A stretch of DNA of 64,000 bases from Octopus vulgaris (Eukaryota). How positions within the stretch are numbered: position 1 is the first letter of the stretch; each line of letters opens with the position of its first letter. A program made the translations under genes and the position numbers. The notes under the pieces are model-generated. The model had not been told where the DNA came from and did no database searches. It saw only the letters and a list, made by a program, of their open reading frames with translations. Below are positions 824 to 58,020 of this stretch, piece by piece. Where the stretch lies: contig OX597820.1 of assembly GCA_951406725.2 (NCBI GenBank), positions 117,676,001 through 117,740,000 of the forward strand, written 5' to 3'.

Positions 824-930
824 AAAAATATGGAATGTTTCATGAATTTGCATGCAATCCTTGCGCCGGGGCCATGCTAATCTTCTCCGTATCATTCCAA
901 TTTTAGAATATGTGCTGCCAAAGCTAGCAC
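824..930 (-). pseudogene. U6: U6 snRNA full-length copy (107 nt), probably a pseudogene
   Basis: Reverse complement reads GTGCTAGCTTTGGCAGCACATATTCTAAAATTGGAATGATACGGAGAAGATTAGCATGGCCCCGGCGCAAGGATTGCATGCAAATTCATGAAACATTCCATATTTTT. About 12 differences from human U6 as recalled, several CpG>TpG/CpA. ACAGAGA box mutated to ACGGAGA. No PSE/TATA promoter recognised upstream. Confidence 0.92.
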
Positions 931-43655: not shown

Positions 43656-43729
43656 ATGTCGGAGGGTGAGGCAAAAGCAGCGCCAGCGGCCAAATCGAAA
43701 AAGAAGACCCCAAAACGAACACCTGGCAG
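43656..43729 (+). CDS. RPL35A: 60S ribosomal protein L35a (eL33), coding exon 1
   Basis: Acceptor tttctcttag ends at 43649, ATG at 43656. MSEGEAKAAPAAKSKKKTPKRTPG-R, donor ag|gtaata, phase 2. Confidence 0.85.
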
Positions 43730-44736
43730 GTAATATTTTTTTATGCATAATCCATGTGCTCATCACTTTATCAATATTTACAATGTTAAGTGGGATTCTT
43801 TTGTTTTCTGTTTCGATGTATCATTGAAGCGAATGAAAAGTTGCAAGACGAAATTAAACAGTCCAAACGGGATGTATTTAGTTTCTGTATAGCGATGCGA
43901 TTGTATACTTTTACTTGTTTCAGTCATTTGACTGTGGCCATGCTGGAGCACCGCCTTTAGCCGTGCAACTCGACTTATTCTATCGATCTCTTTTGCCGAA
44001 CTGCTAAGTGACGGGGACATAGACACACCAGCATCGGTTGTCAAGTAATGCTAGGGGGACAAACAGACATACACGCACACACATATGTACGACGGGCTTC
44101 TTTCAGTTTCCGTCTACCAAATCCACTCTCAAGGCTTTGGTCGGCCCGAGGCTATAGCAGAAGACACTTGCCCAAGATGCCACGCAGTGGGACTGAACCT
44201 GGAACCATGTGGTTGGTAAACAAGCTACTTACCACACAGCCACTCCTGTATATGTATTATTTCTGGAAATTTTACCTTGTAAGCGAACATGAACGGAAGG
44301 GTGAGGATTAGGCGGTGCACAGGGTTTTTATAATTTTAGTAAATAACAGTTGAACATAGGACAAATAAAGCTGTTTGCATATTGCTAAAATTCTTGCATT
44401 CTGATCAGATAAAACATTTGCATCATTATTTTAGCTGCTGGTCATTTGTGTTTTGCTGTGGCCAATATTCTTAAAACGAGATCCTTGGAGTCTTGTTCTG
44501 TTATTATTATTCACCCATAACAGAATTTAGGTTTTTTGGCTTAACTCACCAAATTAAAGTTTTGTCAATTAGGTACACTCTCATTAGACTGGGAGTCAGA
44601 TTTCTATGTTCCCATAGCAACAATTTTAAACTAAGCTTTGAAGACTACGTGATGTTAGTATATTCAAGAAAATCATGTATGAAATGATGCACATGGCTGC
44701 CCAATAGCCCTCAGACCACACCTTGCTGTTGTATAT

Positions 44737-44860
44737 AGGTACTTGTATCGCAGGCGTAGGCAGTCGATCCTACGAGCTGACTGGCGCGTACACGATATAT
44801 ACTTGTATGGCACGGACGCGTGTGTGCGCGAACCGGGACCACTCTGCGATACAAGTACCT
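44737..44860. mobile_element. Small MITE related to the 40123 element
   Basis: TIR AGGTACTTGTATCGCAG/CTGCGATACAAGTACCT. Shares subterminal ACCGGGACCACTCT with ~40275-40288. Confidence 0.65.
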
Positions 44861-45899
44861 TGTATATGTGTATATATATATATATATCCATCGGTTTGAC
44901 TATGCTAGGAGGCTGCACCAGACTCCAATCTGATCTGGCAGTGTTTCTAAAGCTGGGTGCTTTTTGCATGCCACTGGCACAGGAGCAAGTCAGGGTGAGA
45001 GGGCAGGCAGCGACCACATTCAGATGGTGCTTATTGCATGCCACCAGCATGGGGGCCAGTCAGGCGACACTGGCATCTGTCACTACAATTTCCGTTTTGA
45101 TTGTGAATTGATATTATTTTAATGCTGATGTACTTGAGCAAAGCATGTCGCCCAATGATCCAAAGGTACTTTTTTTTAAGTGGGCTGGTTATGTGACATT
45201 GGTGTAGGCTACAATTGATCTCACTTTACTTGCTGGGTCTTCTCAGTCACAGCATATCTCCAGGGTTCTCAGTCTTTCGTCATTTCTTCTGTGGGGCCCA
45301 ACATACAAAGGTCATGCTTCACCACCTCATCCCATACCTTAGATCTCTCTCTACCACAGGTTCTTTCCACTGATTGGCAGTGATACGTCTTCACACAGCT
45401 CTCTTCATCCATCTGTAGTACATGACCATACCAGTGCAGTTGTTTCTCATGCACATCACATCTGATGCTTCTTATCATCATCATCATCGTTTAACGTCCG
45501 CTTTCCATGCTAGCATGGGTTGGACGGTTCAACTGGGGTCTGGCAAGCCCGAAGGCTGCACCAGACCAGTCAGATCTGGCAGTGTTTCTACAGCTGGATG
45601 CCCTTCCTAACGCCAACCACTCCGAGAGTGTAGTGGGTGATTTTATGTGCCACCGACACAGGTGGCAGACGGCCACGCTCGGATGGTGTTTTCTTATGTG
45701 CCACCGACACAGGTGCCAGACGAGGCTGGAGAACGGCCACAATCGGATGGTGTTTGTTACGTGCCCACAGCACGGAGGCTAGTTGATGCGGTACTGGCTA
45801 CGGTCCCGTTCGGATGGTTTTCTTATGTGCCACCGGCACTGGTACCACAAGGATACAAATTCCATTGATGTTCATCTATTTTGGTTTGATTTGATTTTC

Positions 45900-47248
45900 A
45901 AGATTTCTCTCAGGTCGCTTACACTCTGTCGTGTGTGCACACTGACATCACACATCATGCTAGCTTCATGTCCCAATCCATGCGGTCTTTTCCCGTTATA
46001 CTTTTTATCTGTGTAAACATCGAAGTTTACACGGTATCCTGTCTCCAATTCACAAACTTCCCATTCCTTGATCCCCATTTAGTAGGTTTAGCAGGCATGT
46101 ACTGCTAAAGATGTACTCTGCCCTTATAGCCTATCATGGTTTCATCTACACTGAGATTTTTCCCAGGTAAATAAATAGTTTTATAATTCTGTACGAGTAA
46201 ATCAATTACAGGACGTACTTTGTGCAGGGGATCGTAGTTTGGGTCGTTTTTGCTGGGGGCATTGGCAGAATCAGTTAAATGCAAATACTGAGATATTTTC
46301 AAATACCTTGTCTGTATGGTTCGATCCCGCACTTAATTCAGTCTCCAATCAAATTCACAGTGTTTTGATTGGTATATTATGAGTGCTACAGCATTATTGA
46401 CTTAATTAAATGCAGCTTTTCTAATAAACGCTGTTATAATTAAATTCAGACAATTTTCTCATTTTGTGAGGTGGTGTACCTGCTTCAATACTTCATTAGA
46501 AAGTTGTCTGTTGGGCTTCGTGGGGCGGGGTTGGATGCTCGAAATATATGGATCGCCATACCTTACATCGGGTCTCCAATAGTTCCACATTCGAGGAAGC
46601 TGTTTAACTCCAAGCATAATTTTAATTGCGAAAAATGCTCTCATTTCTGCAGTATTAGTTGGCTGCCATAGCGGATCGTTTCTTCCTCGGACAGAAATTA
46701 AGTGTTGCGCATATTTGTTCATTTCCTCTGCAACATTTTCAAAAGAACTTTCAGGCAAAAATAAAAATAGATAGTCCAGTGGTTGAGCAACAGGAGGTAA
46801 ATTATGGCGAGGACCAGTGTTTTCTGTAAAATCAGAAATTGTGACTGGTGTCGTAATTTTCGACCATGTTGCCTTGTTTACAATATCGTTTTCATCAGTT
46901 TCGTTATGGAAATCTTCGTCCGACGAGTAATCACTGATATCAATATCAGGTTCATCCAAAGTCAAAATGCTTTCCTTTTCGTTGATATCTTCAAAGTCGG
47001 AATCGATACTTGCTGACGCCATTTCTTTCACAACAAACATATACACATGTGGTCTAAACAATTTCACAGTATTTATGCTTGAATAAAGGCGGGAAAGGCT
47101 CCCTCCATCTTGCATTTTCTCAAAGCTACGAGAATTTAATGTGACTTATTTTTTTTTGTGATTTCATAGAGCTGTCTGATACAGCCGGTTTGAACAAGTA
47201 AAGGGGAATTAATTTTAGCCAGTTACGGCCGGTTTGAACACTAAAGGG
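45900..47248 (-). mobile_element. piggyBac (PGBD4-like) transposon fossil
   Basis: EMRAFFAIKIMLGV, YLHLTD..DPLHKVRPVID..LSVDETMIGYKGR, YMPAKPTK.GIK. End CCCTTTAGTGTTCAAACCGG at 47248. Interrupted at 46311-46534. Confidence 0.88.
46329..46455 (+). ncRNA. Box H/ACA snoRNA-like gene, copy A1 (RPL35A intron 2)
   Basis: Hairpin 1 GCACTTA..CCAATCAAA/TTTGATTGG..TGAGTGC, H box ACAGCA (46388-46393), hairpin 2 TGACTTAATT..GCAGC/GCTGT..AATTAAATTCA, ACA at 46450-46452. Sense to the host gene. Confidence 0.7.
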
Positions 47249-47413
47249 TGAAACGACAATGATGTCTGCTGTGGAAGCAATTCAGTAAGGACCGGCAGGT
47301 AAAAGGATTATCATAGATGGAACTACCAATGTGAAATGTTTTTTAGGCTTTAATGTTAGTTGTGTCAACATTAATTTAGTCAGAAGTTATATTGTTGTTG
47401 TTATCTATTTCAG

Positions 47414-47566
47414 ACTCTATGTTAAAGCTGTGTTCACAGGCTACAAACGTGGTTTAAGAAACCAGTATGAGCACACTGCACTCTTGAAGATTGATGGTGT
47501 TTATAAAAGAAATGAAACTAGTTTTTACCTTGGCAAAAAATGTGCTTATGTATACAAGGCAAAGAG
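47414..47566 (+). CDS. RPL35A: RPL35A coding exon 2
   Basis: tttcag|...|gtgagc, 153 nt. [50 protein letters not shown]. Confidence 0.97.
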
Positions 47567-47884
47567 GTGAGCTTTATCTTTTTTTCTTTTAAAAAACGAC
47601 AGGTGGGGGTGTTTATGTAACACTGTATTGGCCCCCACATACTGCTCCCAATGCACTTCCAACCCATTTCTTTTACGTCTGGATCCCCCTACATCGTCGT
47701 GGAGGCCCCTTACAAAGTGGTGCTTTCTGCTCATGCATGCCGCTCGGCAACTGCACAAGTCCACCTGATGTTTGTGGAGCTTGTACTTTTGGTATTCTGC
47801 ATTCCCTACTCTCCACCCTCAAATTAACGCATTTTAAATATGCTCAGAAGAACTCGCTGTAAGGTCTCTGTATGGTTCGATCCC

Positions 47885-48011
47885 GCACTTAATTCAGTCT
47901 CCAATCAAATTCACAGTGTTTTGATTGGTATATTATGAGTGCTACAGCATTATTGGCTTAATTAAATGCAGCTTTTCTAATAAACGCTGTTAGAATTAAA
48001 TTCAGACAATT
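47885..48011 (+). ncRNA. Box H/ACA snoRNA-like gene, copy A2 (RPL35A intron 3)
   Basis: Near-identical to A1 (two substitutions seen); same hairpin-H-hairpin-ACA layout. Confidence 0.72.
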
Positions 48012-50332
48012 TTCTCATTTTGTGAGGTGGTGTACCTGCTTCAATACTTCATTAGAAAGTTGTTTGCTGGGCTTCGTGGGGTGGGGTTGGCTGCCCCACA
48101 ATATAGAAGCTTCAGTGACCTTCATCCTAAAGCGTGACTTTAAGATAATTAACATACGACAACTGGTGATTTGGTTTCTAAATCTCTGGTGAGAACCATT
48201 GGGTGTGGTTGAGTTCTTAAGGACCTGAATTGCTATCATCATCATTTAATGTCTGTTCTTCCTGGCACGGGTTGGATGGTTTGAAAGGAACTGTACCAGG
48301 CTTCATTTGTCTGTTCTGGTGTGAGTTCTACAGCTGGATGCCCTTCCTAATGCCAACCACTTTACAGTGTGTGTGTTGGGTGCTTTTTACATGGCACCAT
48401 TACCAACATCATCATCAAAGCAAAATCTCTCAACTCGGAAATGGGTGGCTTTGTATCAGTTGAGAGATTAAGTGTATAGAGGTGTTGGGACGGGTATCTT
48501 GCTGTAGGGTGGATGCATTGATAGACCAGTTAGAAGGGAAGGGACTAGTGAGAGAGATGGTAGATTGGGAGAGGTAACTCAAGAAGCTGCTGGGTGGTGC
48601 AGTGTCTATAAATCTCCGGATTTTTGGAGAAGGTTCAGATTTTGATGAAATGCAGTTAATTTTACATGCTGTATCATCATCATCATACATTTACTGCATG
48701 AGTTTTTGATGTTCTTTAGGAATCTGTTTTGTCGCTTTCACCTGCCCAGGTGTGTTGTTGAATATCGAAGCTTGTAGGTGTTTTCACTTACATTTTCAGG
48801 ATCTCAATCTCCGTCTTGGGTTTCTTGCCTGGAAGTTGCACACTTGGCATCAGGAAAATCATTCCAAGATATGCCTTCAGTTCCTCCAGGTGTTTTGTAT
48901 TGTCCAGCATATATGTGCTTTTATCGTTTACTTGTTGCACCCATCAGGTTACGGTCATGCTGGTGCACTGTGTTATAGAATTTTTGTTGGTCTCTTGTAC
49001 AAAGCCACTGTGTTACATTCTCTTTCCATCTACCAAATCCACTCACTCGGTGCACTCTGTGAGTCAGAATGTGGTTGGGAGACGAGCTTCTTGTCTCACA
49101 CCCATCCCTGCCCCTATTTCTGCAGAAATGTTTGTTTTTTCCCCCCTCTCTATCCTCATGGAAGCATCATCATTAACTATATGGATGCTCCACCCCAAGA
49201 AGTCCTGGTATCATTCACACTGAAATACCATTCTAAGTGTTTCCTTGAAAACCAAGCTCTCTTTCTATAAAAGTGACTGGTTTTGTATTTTGGCACAAGG
49301 CCGCCAATTTTATGGACGCTGTTCCTTATCTTGTTGACCATGGCGGAATTTGAACTCAGATTGGAGACGGTTAGCATGCCACTAAACGTCCTCACCAGCT
49401 TCTGAACCAGCCACATGCAAGATTGAAGGGGAATAAAAAAGAAAGATTTTTGGTAAGCGGTTCCCATGTCAGCCACATGGTTGAAAGATCAATTGCACAG
49501 CATGATAGATGGTTAAATATCTTCTATTATGGCATTGGGCCAACCAATAGCTTTGAGGTTGGGTTTTGATGAGAGGAAAGGAAAGAAGGCTCTCACATGT
49601 GTGTGTCTGTCTCTGATCCTGTAGCGTAGTGGTTTCTTAAAAGAGGTCAACTGAATATGAACCCAGGTCAATTTCTTTGACTAAAAGAAAGATGAAGCGT
49701 AGATTCTACAAGCTGGGAGTCTTGTAAAGTTTGGCTGGGCTCACCTGGACCGCCCTTTTCGTACTGCATTGATATGTGGTTCCTTATTGTAGAGGTCTTA
49801 GAGGATTAAGTTGCTGGTGGCAATGGCCACTGCCTGGCCCTCGTCCCGCACTCCTCAAAGCCCTAAAACTCCTATACCAGGGCCTCACCACCAGGTCCAG
49901 TTTCAGGTCTTTCCCAGGACCCTCCATACCTCAACAGCAAATTACAGCTGCAGCGTCTGCACTATCGAATGCAGTTGCTCTCCCAGTGGGGCATTTGTCA
50001 AATCTTCAGGATGGATTTTTGGGCCACAAGCTGAAGTATGACTTTGGCTGCTGGAATGGACAGGAATTCACCAGTCCCACTCTCCCCTTGTGAGTGCCAC
50101 TGAAAGTACTGCAAAGGACTATTTTCTGAGGAACACTTCCACAGTCGGTTATAAATATGCCTGAGACAAACAAATAAATGAAGTATTATGCTGCTCCTTA
50201 TAGTGTTTACCTGTTCGTCAGCTAATTATGAATTAACCAGATTTCGTTGTCTCTCAATTGATAACTTGTAATCAAGAGTTCAATTCCACTTTTTGTCTTT
50301 GTGTGTCTCTTGTACCCCGAAAGGATTACCAT

Positions 50333-50462
50333 GCACTTAAACAGGCCTACAATCAAAGGGTCACTGTTTTGGTTGATGGAATAATAAGTGCCACAGAAAA
50401 TTGGAATCTTTATATAATGCAATCATCCAAGTGGTGCCTGTCGCATAAAATTCCAGACAAAT
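50333..50462 (+). ncRNA. Box H/ACA snoRNA-like gene, copy B1
   Basis: GCACTTA-pocket-CAATCAAAG/TTTTGGTTG-pocket-TAAGTGC, H box ACAGAA, hairpin 2 TGGAAT..ATTCCA, ACA at 50457-50459. Confidence 0.65.
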
Positions 50463-52439
50463 TTTTAAGTGTAATTTTTTTTTTTTTTTTAACACCCTTC
50501 CATGGTTGTTTTGGGTGCACTGTTTGCCTGTGTGGTGAGGACAATCACCACCGTTTGACATCTGGTGTTGGTGTATGTATGTAGCTTAGAAGTTCAGAAA
50601 GGCCAACTGATGGAATAGGCATCAGGTTCAAAAACCAGTAATTACAGGGTTTGCTTCGTTCAATTAAAATTCTGTGTTTGTTCTGATAATTAAATATCAA
50701 GCATCGTTTTACTAAAATGTCAAGAGCAAGAACTCTGGAGCTTTGGAGAAGGTTAAGATTTTGGTGAAATGCAGTTAATTTGGCATGCTGTATCATCATC
50801 ATACATTTACTGCATGAGGTTTTGTTGTTCTTTAGGAATTTGCATTGTCAGTTTCACCTGCCCAGGTGTGCTGTTGAATATCGAAGCTTGTAGGTGTTTT
50901 CACTTACATTTTCAGGATCTCAATCTCTGGCTTGGGTTTCTTGTCTGGAAGCTGCATACCTGACATCAGGAAAGTCATTCCAAGATATGCCTTCAGTTCC
51001 TCCAGGTGTTTTGTATTGTCTGCCATGTATGTGCTTTTATCGTTTACTTGTTGCACCCATCAGGTTACGGTCATGCTGGTGCAGTGTGTTATAGAATTTT
51101 TATTGGTCTCTTGTGCAGAGTCACTAGGTTACATTCTTTATCCATCTACCAAGTGCACTCGGTGAGACGGAATATGGTTGAGAGACAAGCTTCTCATCTC
51201 ACACCCATCCCTGCCCCTATTTCTGCAGAAATGTTGGTTTTTTTCCCCCCTCTATCCTCATAGAAGCATCATCATCAACTGCGTGGATGCTCCGCCCCTA
51301 AGAAGTCCTGGTGTCATTCACACTGAAATATCATTCTAATTGTTTCCTTCAAAACCAAGCTCTTTGCTCTCTTTCTATAAAAGTTGCTGGTTTCGTATTT
51401 TGGCACAAGGCCGGCAATTTTGGGGAAGCTGTTCCTTATCTTGTTGACCTTGGCGGAATTTGAACTCAGATTGGAGACAGTTAGCATGCCACTAAACGTC
51501 CTCACCAGCTTCTGAACCAGCCACATACAAGATTGAAGGGGAATAAATGAGAAAGATTTTTGGTAAGAGGTTTCCTTGCCAGCCACATGGTTGCAAGATC
51601 ATTCGCACGGCATGACAGATTGGTTAAATATCTTCTATTATGGCATTGGGCCAACCAAAAGCTTTGAGGTTGGGTTTTAAAGCGAGGAAAGGAAAGAAGG
51701 CTGTGTGTGTGTCTCTGATCCCGTAGCGCAGTGGTTTCATAAAAGGGGTCAACTGAATATGAACCCAGGTCAATTTCTTTGACTAAAAGAAACAAAGATT
51801 CTACAGGCTGGAAGTCTTGTAAAGTTTGGCTGGGCTCACCTGGGCTGCCCTTTTCGTACTGCGTTGATATGTGGCTCCTTATTGTAGAGGTCTTAAAGGA
51901 TTAAGTTGTTGGTGGCAATGGCGCCTGCCTGGCATTCATTGTCCCGCACTCCTCAAAGCCCTAAAACTCTTATACCAGGGCCTCACCACCAGGTCCAGTT
52001 TCAGGTCTTTCCCAGGACCCTCCATACCTCAACAGCAAATTACAGCTGCAGCGTCTGCACTATCGGATGAAGTTGCTCTCCCAGTGCGGCATTGGTCAAA
52101 TCTTCAGACCGGGTTTTTGGGCCACAAGCTGAAGTATGACTTTGGCTGCTGGAATGGACAGGAATTCATCAGTCGGAACCAGCCCCCACCCTCCCTTTGT
52201 GAGTGCCACTGAAAGTATAGCAAAGGACCATTTTCTGAGGAACACTTCCACAGTCGGTTATAAATATGCCTGAGACAAACAAATAAATGAAGTATTATGC
52301 TGCTCCTTATGGTGTTTACCTGTTCGTCAGCTAATTATGAATTAACCAGATTTCGTTGTCTCTCAATTGATGACTTGTAATCAAGAGTTCAATTCCACTT
52401 TTTGTCTTTGTGTCTCTTGTACCCCGAAAGGATTACCAT

Positions 52440-52569
52440 GCACTTAAACAGGCCTACAATCAAAGGGTCACTGTTTTGGTTGATGGAATAATAAGTGCCA
52501 CAGAAAATTGGAATCTTTATATAATGCAATCATCCAAGTGGTGCCTGTTGCATAAAATTCCTGACAAAT
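52440..52569 (+). ncRNA. Box H/ACA snoRNA-like gene, copy B2
   Basis: Near-identical to B1; ACA at 52564-52566. Confidence 0.62.
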
Positions 52570-55003
52570 TTTTTAGTGTAATTTTTTTTTTTTTTTAACA
52601 CCCTTCCATGATTGTTGTAGGTGCAAGGTTTGCCTGTGTGGTGAGGACAATCACCACCGTTTGACATCTGGTGTTGGTGTATGTATGTAGCTTAGAAGTT
52701 CAGAAAGGCCAACTGATGGAATAGGCATCAGGTTCAAAAACCAGTAATTACAGGGTTTGCTTCGTTCAATTAAAATTCTGTGTTTGTTCTGATAATTAAA
52801 TATCAAGCATCGTTTTACTAAAATGTCAAGAGCAAGAACTCTGGAGCTTTGGAGAAGGTTAAGATTTTGGTGAAATGCAGTTAATTTGGCATGCTGTATC
52901 ATCATCATCATACATTTACTGCATGAGGTTTTGTTGTTCTTTAGGAATTTGCATTGTCAGTTTCACCTGCCCAGGTGTGCTGTCGAATATCGAAGCTTGT
53001 AGGTGTTTTCACTTACATTTTCAGGATCTCAATCTCTGGCTTGGGTTTCTTGTCTGGAAGCTGCACACCTGGCATCAGGAGAATCATTCCAAGATATGCC
53101 TTCAGTTCCTCCAGGTGTTTTGTATTGTCCAGCATATATGTGCATTTATCGTTTACTTGTTGCACCCATCAGGTTACGGTCATGCTGGTGCACTGTGTTA
53201 TGGAATATTTTTTGGTCTCCTGTGCAAATCCACTGTGTTACATTCTCTTTCCATCTACCAAATCCACTCGCATGGTGCACTCTGTCAGTCAGAATGTGGA
53301 ACAATGTGGTTGAGAAACGAGCTTCTTGTCTCACACCCATCCCTGCCCCTATTTCTACAGAAATGCTTGTTTTTTTTTCCCCCTCTCTATACTCATGGAA
53401 GCATCATCATCAACTGCCTGGATGCTCCGCCCCCGAGAAGTCCTAGTGTCATTTATACTGAAATGCCATTTTAAATGTTTCCTTGAAAACCATGCTCTCT
53501 TTCTATAAAAGTTACTGGTTTCCGATTTTGGCACAAGGCCGGCAATTTTGGGGAGGTTGGTCCTTGTTTTGTTGACCATGGCAGAATTTGAGCTCAGAAC
53601 GAAGAGACATTTAAGATGCCACTAAACGTCCACACCAGCTTCTGAACCAGCCACGCGTAAGATTGAAGGGTAATAAAAAAGAAAGATTCTTGATAAGAGG
53701 TTTCCATGTCAGCCACATGGTTGCAAGATCATTCGCACTGCATGACTGATTGGTTAAATACCATTAGAAAGGGTATCAGGCTGTAGGAGCTTTACCCAAT
53801 CAGATTGGAGCCTGGTGCAGTCAAACCATCCAACCCATGCCAGCATGGAAAGTGGACGTCTACGGATGATGACGATGTAGCAGTAGCCCAGTTTACAAGA
53901 TCATCAATTAGCATCCGCTTTCCATGCTGGCATGGGTTGGATGGCTTGCCTGGAACTGGTAAGCTGGAGAGCTGCACCTGGCTCCAGTCTGAATTTGGCT
54001 TGGTTTGTGTCACTATCATGGAAGCATCGTTTTCCAGTTATGTGGTCTTGGGTTCAGTCCCACAGCAGACCACCTTTTGTTGTAGTCCTCTGTTTAGAAA
54101 AACTTTGGCAGTGGATTTCGTAGGTGGAAAGTGAAGTGTTTGTGTGTGTGTGCAGAGCCTGGTCTTGAGAGGTTTTTGTTGTACATAAGCAATGTTGTTG
54201 TTTGTCTGTGGTGTTCCATGTAAAACATTGTCTGGTCCTTAGAAAATATTGCTTCCGTAAATTCCATCTCACACATGCAGGTACGGAAAAAGTGGACTTT
54301 AGATCGGTTGGGGGTTGGGCTTTGTCAGTTTTCTAATTGATGATATATCTTAGTTGTCATTCAGCACAGGTGGAGAGTTCGTGTTCAGGGTTCCACGTGT
54401 ATATACGCTGCACTTTAGGTCAATCCAGCAGTTGGGGAACTGGAACTCTGTTGGGTGTTGCTTCTGGGAACAATATTGGCTAAGTTGTCCAGCACTCCTC
54501 AAAGCCCTAAAACTCCTATACCAGGGCCTCACCACCAGGTCCAGTTTCAGGTCTTTCCCAGGACACTCCATACCTCAACAGCAGATTACAGCTGCAGCGT
54601 CTGCACTATCGGATGCAGTTGCTCTCCCAGTTGGGCATTTGTCAAATCTTCAGACCGGGTTTTTGGGCCACAAGCTGAAGTATGACTTTGGCTGCTGGAA
54701 TGGACAGGAATTCATCAGTCGGAACCAGCCCCCACCCTCCCCTTGTGAGTGCCACTGAAAGTACTGCAAAGTTATTTAGTAGCAAAGGACCATTTTCTGG
54801 GGAACACTTCCACAGTCGGTTATAAATATGCCTGAGACAAACAAATAAATGAAGTATTACGCTGCTCCTTATGGTGTTTCCCTGTTCGTCAGCTAATTAT
54901 AAATTAACCAGATTTCGTTGTCTCTCAATTGATAACTTGTAATCAAGAGTTCAATTCTACTTTTTGTCTTTGTGTGTCTCTTGTACCCTGAAAGGATTAC
55001 CAT

Positions 55004-55131
55004 GCACTATTCATATGCTCAATCAAAGGGACACTGTTTTGGTTGATGGGGGGGTAGTGCCACAGAAAATTGGAATTTTTCTATAATGCAATCATCTAAG
55101 TGGTGCCTGTCGCATAAAATTCCAGACAAAT
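55004..55131 (+). ncRNA. Box H/ACA snoRNA-like gene, copy B3 (different pocket)
   Basis: Lower stem GCACTATTC/GGGTAGTGC, same upper stem, H box ACAGAA, ACA at 55126-55128. Confidence 0.65.
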
Positions 55132-55526
55132 TTTAAGTGTAAATGATTTTTTTTTTTTTTTAACACCCTTCCATGATTGTTTTGGGTGCACTGTTTGCCT
55201 GTGTGGTGAGGACAATCACCACCATTTGACATCTGGTGTTGGTGTATGTATGTAGCTTAGAAGTTCAGAAAGGCCAACTGATGGAATAGGCATCAGGTTC
55301 AAAAACCAGTAATTACAGGGTTTGCTTCATTCAATTAAAATTCTGTGTTTGTGCTGATAATTAAATATCAAACGTTGTTTTACTAAAGTGTCAAGAGCAG
55401 GAACTCTGGAGCTTCCGGGTGAGTGTCTGGTCAATGCAAATGTGATTTGTTGTTCAGAGTGTTCCTTCTGCAAAGTATAATCTACGAATATGTTTTGTTT
55501 ATTATTTGTAAATATTTTCATTGTAG

Positions 55527-55674
55527 GAAAACAAGAATTCCAGGCACCAAAACTGCAGGTCACATTCGTATAATATGGGGCAAAGTCACCCGTCCCCATG
55601 GAAATAGTGGTGCTGTACGTGCGAAATTTAAGAAGAATCTACCTGCTACCGCTATTGGAAGACGCATCCGAGTT
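55527..55674 (+). CDS. RPL35A: RPL35A coding exon 3
   Basis: ttgtag|...|gtaagt. [49 protein letters not shown]. Confidence 0.97.
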
Positions 55675-56763
55675 GTAAGTGAAGAATGTTTTATATGTTG
55701 CTATTCTTGGCATTAGTTGATTTGGAGATGCTTGAAAGAGGAGCAGGTTCTGAAATTTTGGTGGGGGCTGAACAAGATGTGTACAAAGATTATTGAGAGT
55801 TAGGCGTAGGAGCGGCTGTGTGGTAAGTAGTTTGCTTACGAACCACATGGTTCCGGGTTCAGTCCCACTGCGTGGCATCTTGGGCAAGTGTCTTCTGCTA
55901 TAGCCCCGGGCTGACCAATGCCTTGTGAGTGGATTTGGTAGACGGAAACTGAAAGAAGCCTGTCGTGTATATGTATATATATATGTGTGTGTGCGTGTTT
56001 GTCCCCCTAGCATTGCTTGACAACCGGTACTGCTATGTTTATGTCCCCGTCACTTAGCGGTTTGGCAAAAGAGACCAATAGAATGAGTACTGGGCTTGCA
56101 AAGAATAAGTCCCAGGGTCGTTTTGCTCGACTAAAGGCGGTGCTCCAGCATGGCCGCAGTCATGACTGAAACAAGTGAGAGAGAGAGAGAGTTCCTGAGT
56201 TTAGCATGAAGGGTCGGTCCTCAGCCCTGTCCCTCATCAGTCCAATGTGCCATCACAGTGGAGTTAAACACTGGATGTGTGAGGGGAAGTATATATCAAT
56301 TGTTTGGGAGTGACACTACTTCACACGTCTCTCCTCATCCATCCGTATTACATGACCATGCCTGCGTGAACGTCTCTCTAGCACGCCACATTCTTTATGT
56401 CCAGCATTTAATGGATAGGTGATGGCCAGTTTAAATGCTATGGGGTTACAGGTTCTGTCTGGTTCCTAGTAACAACCATTCATTAATGCACTCAAATAGA
56501 AATTGTAGTAGTGGACGATGCCCATGCCACTTGACTGGCTCCCTGTGCTGGCGGCACATAAAAAACACCATCCGAACGTAGTTGATACCATCATGGAAAA
56601 AATGGGTGTTAAACATTTGTGTGGTCCTAAAAGTTAATAGGGCCCACTTGACATTCTTGTGTTTGATTTGTCCCCTCTCACAGTCACCATGTAATTATTA
56701 CCCATAAGTAAAATATTTTCTTTGGGATGTTTCAATTTGTTCTTTTTTTTTTGTTTCTTTCAG

Positions 56764-56787
56764 ATGTTGTATCCATCAAGAATCTAA
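56764..56787 (+). CDS. RPL35A: RPL35A last coding exon (MLYPSRI*)
   Basis: tttcag|ATGTTGTATCCATCAAGAATCTAA; AATAAA at 56799-56804. Total CDS 399 nt. Confidence 0.95.
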   Translation: MLYPSRI

Positions 56788-57059: not shown

Positions 57060-58020
57060 GCAGGTTGATATGAAAAGCATAAAGTCCAACTTAATGGTTC
57101 GCTGTCCGACGTCTCCAGTGCGAGCAGTGGTGTGCTTGGGCCCTTATTGTTCTTAGGCTTCGTAAATGACTTGCCCGACGACCTCGTGCAACAGACCCTT
57201 CTATTTGCCGATGATGTCAAACTGGTCTCTCCTCACGGTGATGTAGATGTTCTTCATCGATGCCTCCACCAAGTTTGGAGATGGTTTAACGAATGGGACC
57301 AGTGTCTGAACATGTCAAAGTGCTGTCGGCTCTACTCCTGCAACTCCACTTGATTTCGAGTCGGGTCATCTGCTGCTAGAGAGGACCGACCAGGTAAAGG
57401 ACCTGAGTATCTTCGTGGATTCTTCCTTTTCGCCTTTGGCCCAGTGCGTCCATGCTGCCAACAAACCACATGGAGTTCTGTTTCAGATTCAACGGTCTTT
57501 CGGAATGCTAACAGCAGCCATATTCCTACCGCTCTGTCCCGCTGGTGAGACCCCATATTGGAGTGCGGGATTCAAGCCTCTTCTCCTTATCTCCTCAAAG
57601 ACATCTGGCTACCTGCATGGTTCTTGGTCTCAAGCATTTGTCTTACAAAGAAAGGCTGAAGGCACTCGACCTTTATTCTCTAGAAAAACGACAACGCCGT
57701 GGTGATCTCATTGTTGCTCACAACATCACAACCGGAGAGTGTGACCTCCCGAAATAGCTGTTCTTCACTCCTGCTCCAGAGCGTCGGCTGCGGGGTCACT
57801 CTGAAAAGCTCTATGTGCGACGATTTCATCTCAATCGAAGGAGAGGTGCTTTCTCTGTCCGGGTTGCGGATCCGTGGAATAAGCTGCCGGTAGAGATGGT
57901 GAAGATGCCGACAACTGCTCGGTTCAAAGTCTCTTGACCCGAAATGGCATGAACACCACCCTGTACGTAACTGCATGTCACCCTACATGGCCTTGCTTCT
58001 TGAGCCAAGATATTAAATTA
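57060..58020 (+). mobile_element. CR1/L2-like LINE 3' RT fragment
   Basis: VLGPLLFLGFVNDLP..LLFADDVKL; LSYKERLKALDLYSLEKRQRRGDLI. Confidence 0.85.

Follow-up and report, generated by a model that had tools for sequence, protein, structure and literature searches.

The guide is normally the best-kept part of a snoRNA copy. However, in the young and comparable copies of a predicted H/ACA-type RNA of Octopus vulgaris (the B family), it is the guides that change fastest, at a rate well above that of neutral intron sequence. In this work, we asked what could drive the guide pockets of these copies apart while the surrounding duplicates stay alike. The window analyzed is a 64-kb stretch of DNA, part of the 2.8-Gb genome that was searched. 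The host gene of the B array and the repeats within it are as follows.

43656-56787, forward strand: RPL35A-like host gene, with Pfam PF01247 on two exons
43656-43729, 47414-47566, 55527-55674, and 56764-56787, forward strand: RPL35A-like coding exons
49843-50743, forward strand: part of unit 1 that matches the unit 3 block
51939-52849, forward strand: part of unit 2 that matches the unit 3 block
54485-55414, forward strand: unit 3, a 930-base block common to units 1 and 2

When joined, the four coding exons maintain an open frame of 132 codons. Three B copies (B1, B2, and B3) and one copy of a related RNA (A2) are all located within a single intron of this gene (47567-55526), on the same strand as the host. 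This intron contains four H/ACA-shaped copies; the usual case is one such RNA per intron. The intron also holds a 2.1-kb tandem repeat that consists of units 1 and 2. The original prediction described the duplicate units as near-identical, which is correct for the block of approximately 930 bases shared with unit 3 but not for the remaining parts of units 1 and 2, which diverge by 9-10%. Nor are the flanks of the three units separated only by scattered single changes, as had been stated, because indels of 11 and 16 bases and a cluster of differences near 55135 are also present. The RNA copies and the elements of B3 are listed below.

46329-46455, forward strand: A1, an older paralog with the same 5' hairpin scaffold, whose 5' pocket is predicted to pair with 18S rRNA at about U380/381
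47885-48011, forward strand: A2, a duplicate of A1
50333-50462, forward strand: B1, in unit 1
52440-52569, forward strand: B2, with the B1 pocket and two changes in the 3' hairpin
55004-55131, forward strand: B3, a predicted H/ACA-type RNA (hairpin, hinge, hairpin, tail)
55010-55019, forward strand: 5' strand of the B3 5' pocket, variable, with three further changes in the public sequencing runs X4 and X11
55020-55045, forward strand: B3 upper stem-loop, nearly constant across all B copies and similar in A
55049-55054, forward strand: 3' strand of the B3 5' pocket (G-run; seven G from 55048), kept in the runs X3, X4, and X11
55062-55067, forward strand: B3 H box ACAGAA (ANANNA), aligned with ACAGCA of A
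55126-55128, forward strand: B3 ACA box, immediately 3' of the 3' hairpin

The prediction that the B copies are intron-encoded H/ACA-type RNAs is based on their boxes, shape, and position. The fold predicted for B3 has the order of hairpin, hinge, hairpin, and tail. An H box that fits ANANNA was found in the hinge of all copies, as ACAGAA in the four B copies and as ACAGCA in the two A copies. An ACA follows the 3' hairpin in all six copies; in a box H/ACA RNA, it is expected three bases from the RNA end. Intronic placement on the host strand applies to the array copies. As originally predicted, the upper stem, the H box, and the ACA are unchanged in B3, and the changed segments do correspond to two guide strands, namely, the two sides of an internal loop in an H/ACA-shaped RNA.

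Compared with shuffled sequences, the 5' hairpin folds better in B3 (z = -3.2), B1 (z = -2.5), and A1 (z = -4.2) but not in B4 (z = -0.8), a further copy described below, and the 3' hairpin gives a weak signal (z = -1.7). Whole-molecule folds were no better than shuffles (z of about -1), and the minimum-energy fold of the whole B1 differs from the H/ACA fold. Wherever a copy has letters at the basal positions, all seven pairs are intact. Among the A and B copies, which are very alike, compensatory changes were found in none of the 22 pairs of three named helices, and RNAalifold reported such changes in three of 24 pairs. No Rfam match over any A or B copy was found at the gathering score or with a low E-value. 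The expectation that the basal stem of B3 still pairs was borne out, but the longer stem depends on two U-G pairs and one C-G pair and is broken at 55010 in X4 and X11.

Elsewhere in the RNA, B2 has changes at 52549 and 52562 in the 3' hairpin, one of which breaks the outer basal pair beside the ACA, and this copy may be decaying. Scaffold differences between B copies or between runs are few, and several of them (55077, 55081, 55086, and 55088) lie in the 5' strand of the second pocket (55077-55088).

Substitutions were proposed to cluster in the B3 pocket, and the clustering test agrees. Between B1 and B3, 14 of the 21 pocket columns differ, compared with 48 of the 914 columns elsewhere (Fisher p = 6e-13), and the top 12-column divergence window was reached in none of 5,000 permutations. 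When unit 3 is compared with unit 1, eight of 11 columns differ in the 5' strand (55009-55019) and six of 10 in the 3' strand (55049-55057), and the 29 columns between them contain one difference, located in the loop (55031). The strand lengths are kept across copies (10 and 9-10 bases), and one basal pair in B3 is gone on both sides at once. A second cluster, with seven to eight differences, lies at the start of a T-run near 55135, where the alignment is uncertain. B1 and B2 have identical pockets (0/21), and 31 of 914 columns differ elsewhere. The contrast between pocket and flanks rejects plain drift at the flank rate, in line with the earlier argument against neutral drift.

For contigs from public sequencing runs, four of the 24 listed runs were compared (X3, X4, X11, and X17, with the organism labels A, B, C, and D, respectively). 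Differences were read among the matches listed (40 of 61 substitutions, 12 of 21 indels, and 32 of 48 pieces), and some versions are partly readable. The G-run in B3 is not a consensus error at a homopolymer. The X3 contig spans 54979-55082 of B3 with no differences and no gaps, and X4 and X11, which have different organism labels and belong to different studies, have contigs that span the G-run with no gap. The runs that confirm the G-run come from three studies, and a link between X3 and the assembly sample is possible.

In both X4 and X11, B4 is present alongside a B3-type pocket and a B1-type pocket that carries one change. The B3-type copies of these runs keep the G-run, differ in the 5' strand at 55010, 55014, and 55017, and have zero or one difference in the other 179-190 bases. 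In the X11 contig (189 bases), three of three differences are inside the 10-base 5' strand (p = 1e-4); in the X4 contig (200 bases), three of four are (p = 4e-4). When B1, B3, and B4 of X11 were pooled, changes were found at four of 51 pocket positions compared with seven of 527 other positions (p = 0.011), counted among the matches listed and with flank contigs that are not tied to one copy with certainty. Because X4 and X11 keep the G-run but differ in the 5' strand, the two pocket strands change separately, and the claim that both were rewritten together is unsupported.

Two further 5' strands were found in X3 (records 20 and 22), and X17 has two array-type contigs (records 14 and 15) in which the B1 3' strand is absent and the G-run is not intact. 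Several changes are common to records 14 and 20, which may represent the same old version. There are thus at least six pocket versions (B1, B3, B4, record 20/14, record 22, and record 15). With multiple versions in the family, the B3 pocket is not a single event, and the proposed direction of change, from the B1 pocket to the B3 pocket, is unsupported. The B1 pocket shows one change over three organism labels, and the length of the 7-G run is constant in three.

The background in which these pockets occur is also uneven. Over the first 1,477 bases of the period, each stretch of 150 columns contains 6-16 substitutions between units 1 and 2, compared with 13 in the 639 columns that surround the RNA. 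Near 54800, there is a switch in which unit is the odd one out. Judged from these alignments, the RNA neighborhood has probably been homogenized by gene conversion, and the identity of the B1 and B2 pockets is therefore weak evidence of selection. Part of the contrast between pocket and flanks may reflect old pockets that survive in converted surroundings.

A copy on another chromosome was found by genome search.

Contig C1:168827236-168827578 (L004:1330-1670), reverse strand: B4

B4 is a 172-base insert that carries a third pocket. Compared with B3, approximately six of 145 non-pocket positions differ (scaffold approximately 96% identical), but most pocket positions differ. B4 has approximately 35 bases of B upstream sequence and is fused to a fragment of a high-copy repeat that lacks its 5' part (957 candidates, of which 40 were scored and are mostly 92-96% identical). 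The end is A-rich, and there is a candidate target-site duplication. A rough look at open reading frames found no host gene within 20 kb around it. B4 is likely a chimeric retrocopy, which would point indirectly to a discrete B RNA. The lone copy with a truncated repeat tail resembles snoRNA retroposons and U6/U3-type chimeric retrocopies (PMC1687206). In that source, upstream sequence was found for one snoRNA only, and adjacent elements usually have separate duplications, unlike B4 (PMC1687206). The B4 5' strand is identical in all four runs, with eight of its 10 bases visible.

For additional members, a genome pattern search gave 44 matches. Among the 35 inspected, the scaffold was found only in the six known copies; eight of the other nine resemble a SINE variant by their matched letters, and one is a twin of an inspected match. 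A second pattern search gave 12 matches, namely, the four B copies and eight sequences without the scaffold. Model R1 recovered only the five known copies in the 64-kb window, a scope in which far-diverged members in the genome may escape. A metagenome scan gave no matches.

The A1 and A2 regions (46311-46548 and 47867-48105) lie in adjacent introns and are 96% identical over 239 bases. In the first hairpin, they share both stems, basal and upper, with B, whereas the pocket differs and the second hairpin has diverged. The A 5' pocket is predicted to pair with 18S U380/381 in normal geometry (two of 25 and one of 30 shuffles were as good), which makes it plausible that A and B form a guide family. 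This best site of paralog A is presumably equivalent to human 18S U218. SNORA31 is reported to guide human U218 (PMC9961685), but neither A nor B has an Rfam match to SNORA31 or any other family. The A1 3' pocket scored above 12 of 12 shuffles against 18S 858-862, with a loose register range. In A2, two changes weaken the 3' hairpin whose A1 counterpart may pair with this site. The 18S rRNA itself (L012:6688-9330) has 2,643 bases with large GC-rich expansions. Directly 5' of the A hairpin (46313-46332), and also before A2, is GGTTCGATCCC, which by eye is like a tRNA T-arm/B box; a tRNA scan of the 64-kb window found no tRNAs.

For the B pockets, targets were sought by scoring the pairing on both sides of each uridine, 13-16 bases from the H box, against shuffles. 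The target set consisted of rRNA, U1, U2, U4, and U5 from the same genome and a U6-like copy from the window (824-930, reverse strand), which is full-length (96 bits), has several changes relative to the consensus, and is possibly a pseudogene. The scan of the B 5' pockets covered 18S, 5.8S, and 28S rRNA, the spacers, and these snRNAs. Within this set, no rRNA or snRNA site beats shuffles for the 5' pockets of B1, B3, and B4 (26, 13, and 6 of 30 shuffles as good, respectively) or for two sister pocket versions (27 and 21 of 30). The best score of the B 3' pocket was 25, compared with 23-29 in the null. A joint scan of B3 and its sister version found no prominent rRNA or snRNA site, the best one being in non-rRNA flank.

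Several individual candidates were rejected. B4 could pair with 18S U792 (5 + 9-10 pairs at a distance of 15), but four of 25 and six of 30 shuffles equal it; B3 with U1 U67 and 28S sites is within the null. Same-sense likeness of the pockets to 18S was also dismissed, as matches of 8-11 bases are equally common outside the pockets. Genome-wide, patterns for predicted targets were not enriched for B1 (125 compared with 249 in the control) or B3 (34 compared with 40), in counts that would miss a single-copy target. For the antisense strand of an abundant SINE, one of 40 shuffles was as good as B1, a comparison that was chosen after the fact and concerns one of four pockets; for B3, B4, and A, 22, 38, and 40 of 40 shuffles were as good. 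The match of B1 is a lead only.

Taken together, the reading we tentatively favor, with confidence somewhat short of even, is that a near-constant scaffold carries 5' pockets that selection for different RNA targets drives apart and maintains as distinct. The B RNAs would be released from the intron and associate with dyskerin, the likeness of scaffold and flanks would be due to recent duplication and gene conversion, and conversion that overwrites a useful pocket would be selected against. Meanwhile, each pocket strand would continue to change on its own, step by step. As targets, this reading predicts mRNA or repeat-derived RNA rather than rRNA or the major snRNAs, or else non-standard pairing. 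Selection for a new target, as first proposed, remains the best reading, but none of the scanned rRNA or snRNA targets beats shuffles.

Several lines of evidence favor selection. First, a narrow pocket peak in a converted background is a described selection signature, as in the divergence peak at exon 5 of the red/green opsin genes under gene conversion (PMC3924837). The likeness lies in a narrow peak of difference inside conversion-homogenized duplicates; the octopus peak instead consists of two strips, approximately 10 and 7 bases long, within a non-coding RNA, and it is also seen when B3 is compared with a copy on another chromosome. Second, B4 and B3 differ mostly in the pocket, pocket lengths are kept, and the basal pairs hold. 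Third, the changes between organisms concentrate in the pocket, both in the X11 copy of B3 and in the pooled X11 counts. The 18S pairing predicted for paralog A, which makes a guide family plausible, is a further point in favor. This reading is weakened by the lack of targets above shuffles for B1, B3, and B4 among rRNA and snRNA, by the nature of the strands (a G-run is a low-specificity guide, and all 3' strands are low-complexity, as from slippage), and by conversion as a possible cause of the identity of B1 and B2. It is further weakened by the absence of compensatory pairs in the named helices and whole-molecule folds at the shuffle level. An evenly elevated mutation rate could likewise produce three, one, and zero pocket changes in the individual copies, and a stepwise useful path between wholly different guides is hard to imagine.

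The main rival explanation, although on balance unlikely, is a targetless 5' pocket at a mutational hotspot (slippage, hairpin-clustered errors, possibly tied to transcription), with fold selection keeping the stems and the diverged pocket stopping conversion. The failure of the B pockets to find a target above shuffles fits such a process, as do the 3' strands, which are G-, T-, or AAT-runs, and the two extra pocket versions within the single run X3. The 5' strands of B1 and B3 contain 6-base palindromes (p = 0.03 and 0.06, noted after the fact), and B4 has none. Outside the host, the 5' strand of B4 is the same in four of four runs while the array pockets turned over, which fits an expression-tied process or selection. 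However, the loop and hinge are also single-stranded and almost constant, B4 has the same hairpin with no change, and pocket lengths are kept. The near-constancy of the B1 pocket and of the G-run length across three labels also speaks against a hotspot.

It is decidedly improbable that pockets were swapped in blocks from a template, either another DNA copy or an RNA through reverse transcription. Such swaps could account for approximately 17 positions turned over within a scaffold divergence of 4-6%, which is beyond easy supply by single mutations, and B4 suggests that B RNA meets reverse transcriptase. Against this, the templated, conversion-like rewrite originally suggested lacks a donor in all searches conducted: the assembly contains no second copy of the B3 pocket, no pocket strand matches the rest of the window over more than nine bases, and none of 24 comparisons for a fold-back or direct donor within 150-200 bases beat shuffles (lowest p = 0.26). 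No pocket strand has an exact match of more than nine bases to rRNA or snRNA in either sense, and the pocket differences of the X4 and X11 copies are three scattered point changes. Finally, an assembly or homopolymer error is hardly credible, as the 7-G run lies inside a repeat array but the X3 contig is exact and the X4 and X11 contigs are gap-free over it.

Beyond selection for different targets, a broader proposal is that the octopus has a variable-guide H/ACA repertoire, in which a constant scaffold from a ribosomal-protein intron has its 5' pocket actively diversified by a dedicated mutational or templated process and selection, aiming pseudouridylation at fast-changing repeat-derived or messenger RNAs. 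We consider this improbable at present.

Pocket switches between H/ACA paralogs are known from vertebrates, namely, E2/ACA6 (PMC1687206), SNORA10/64, SNORA2/34, and the Xenopus SNORA26 and SNORA58-like RNAs (PMC6984369). In these pairs, as in octopus, a duplicated RNA retains its scaffold and alters one pocket (PMC1687206; PMC6984369). The vertebrate pairs have few point changes or approximately 46-55% overall identity, and their targets are in rRNA. In contrast, the octopus B copies combine 95-97% scaffold identity with a near-total replacement of both pocket strands, seen in at least six versions, and none of the scanned rRNA or snRNA targets exceeds shuffles. SNORD115/116 are also tandem arrays of orphan snoRNAs, for which conversion and positive selection have been reported, and one antisense element evolves faster (PMC4063771). 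However, these are C/D-class RNAs with many copies, no target is reported for the element that evolves faster, and the approximately 4-fold excess is between elements rather than over neutral flanks (PMC4063771). The usual case is that snoRNA paralogs vary yet keep their guides (PMC2653536). In the literature, of which coverage was partial, we found no report of octopus snoRNA guides or of a pocket that outruns neutral flanks.

The B family offers a rare opportunity to follow how a new H/ACA guide arises, by comparing copies, alleles, and close species. This allows a test of whether divergent orphan pockets drift or find new targets, a question raised in PMC6984369. If the targets are mRNA or repeat RNA, these guides would add a guided and fast-evolving modification layer in octopus. 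Octopuses are known for heavy RNA editing.

Two other elements were observed near the array. At 53818-53952, an inverted pair of short repeats gives a long hairpin, whose match to a miRNA family is weak and far under the threshold. Just 3' of the host gene, at approximately 57080-57950, is a broken frame with a reverse-transcriptase-like motif recognized by eye, which is probably a LINE remnant.
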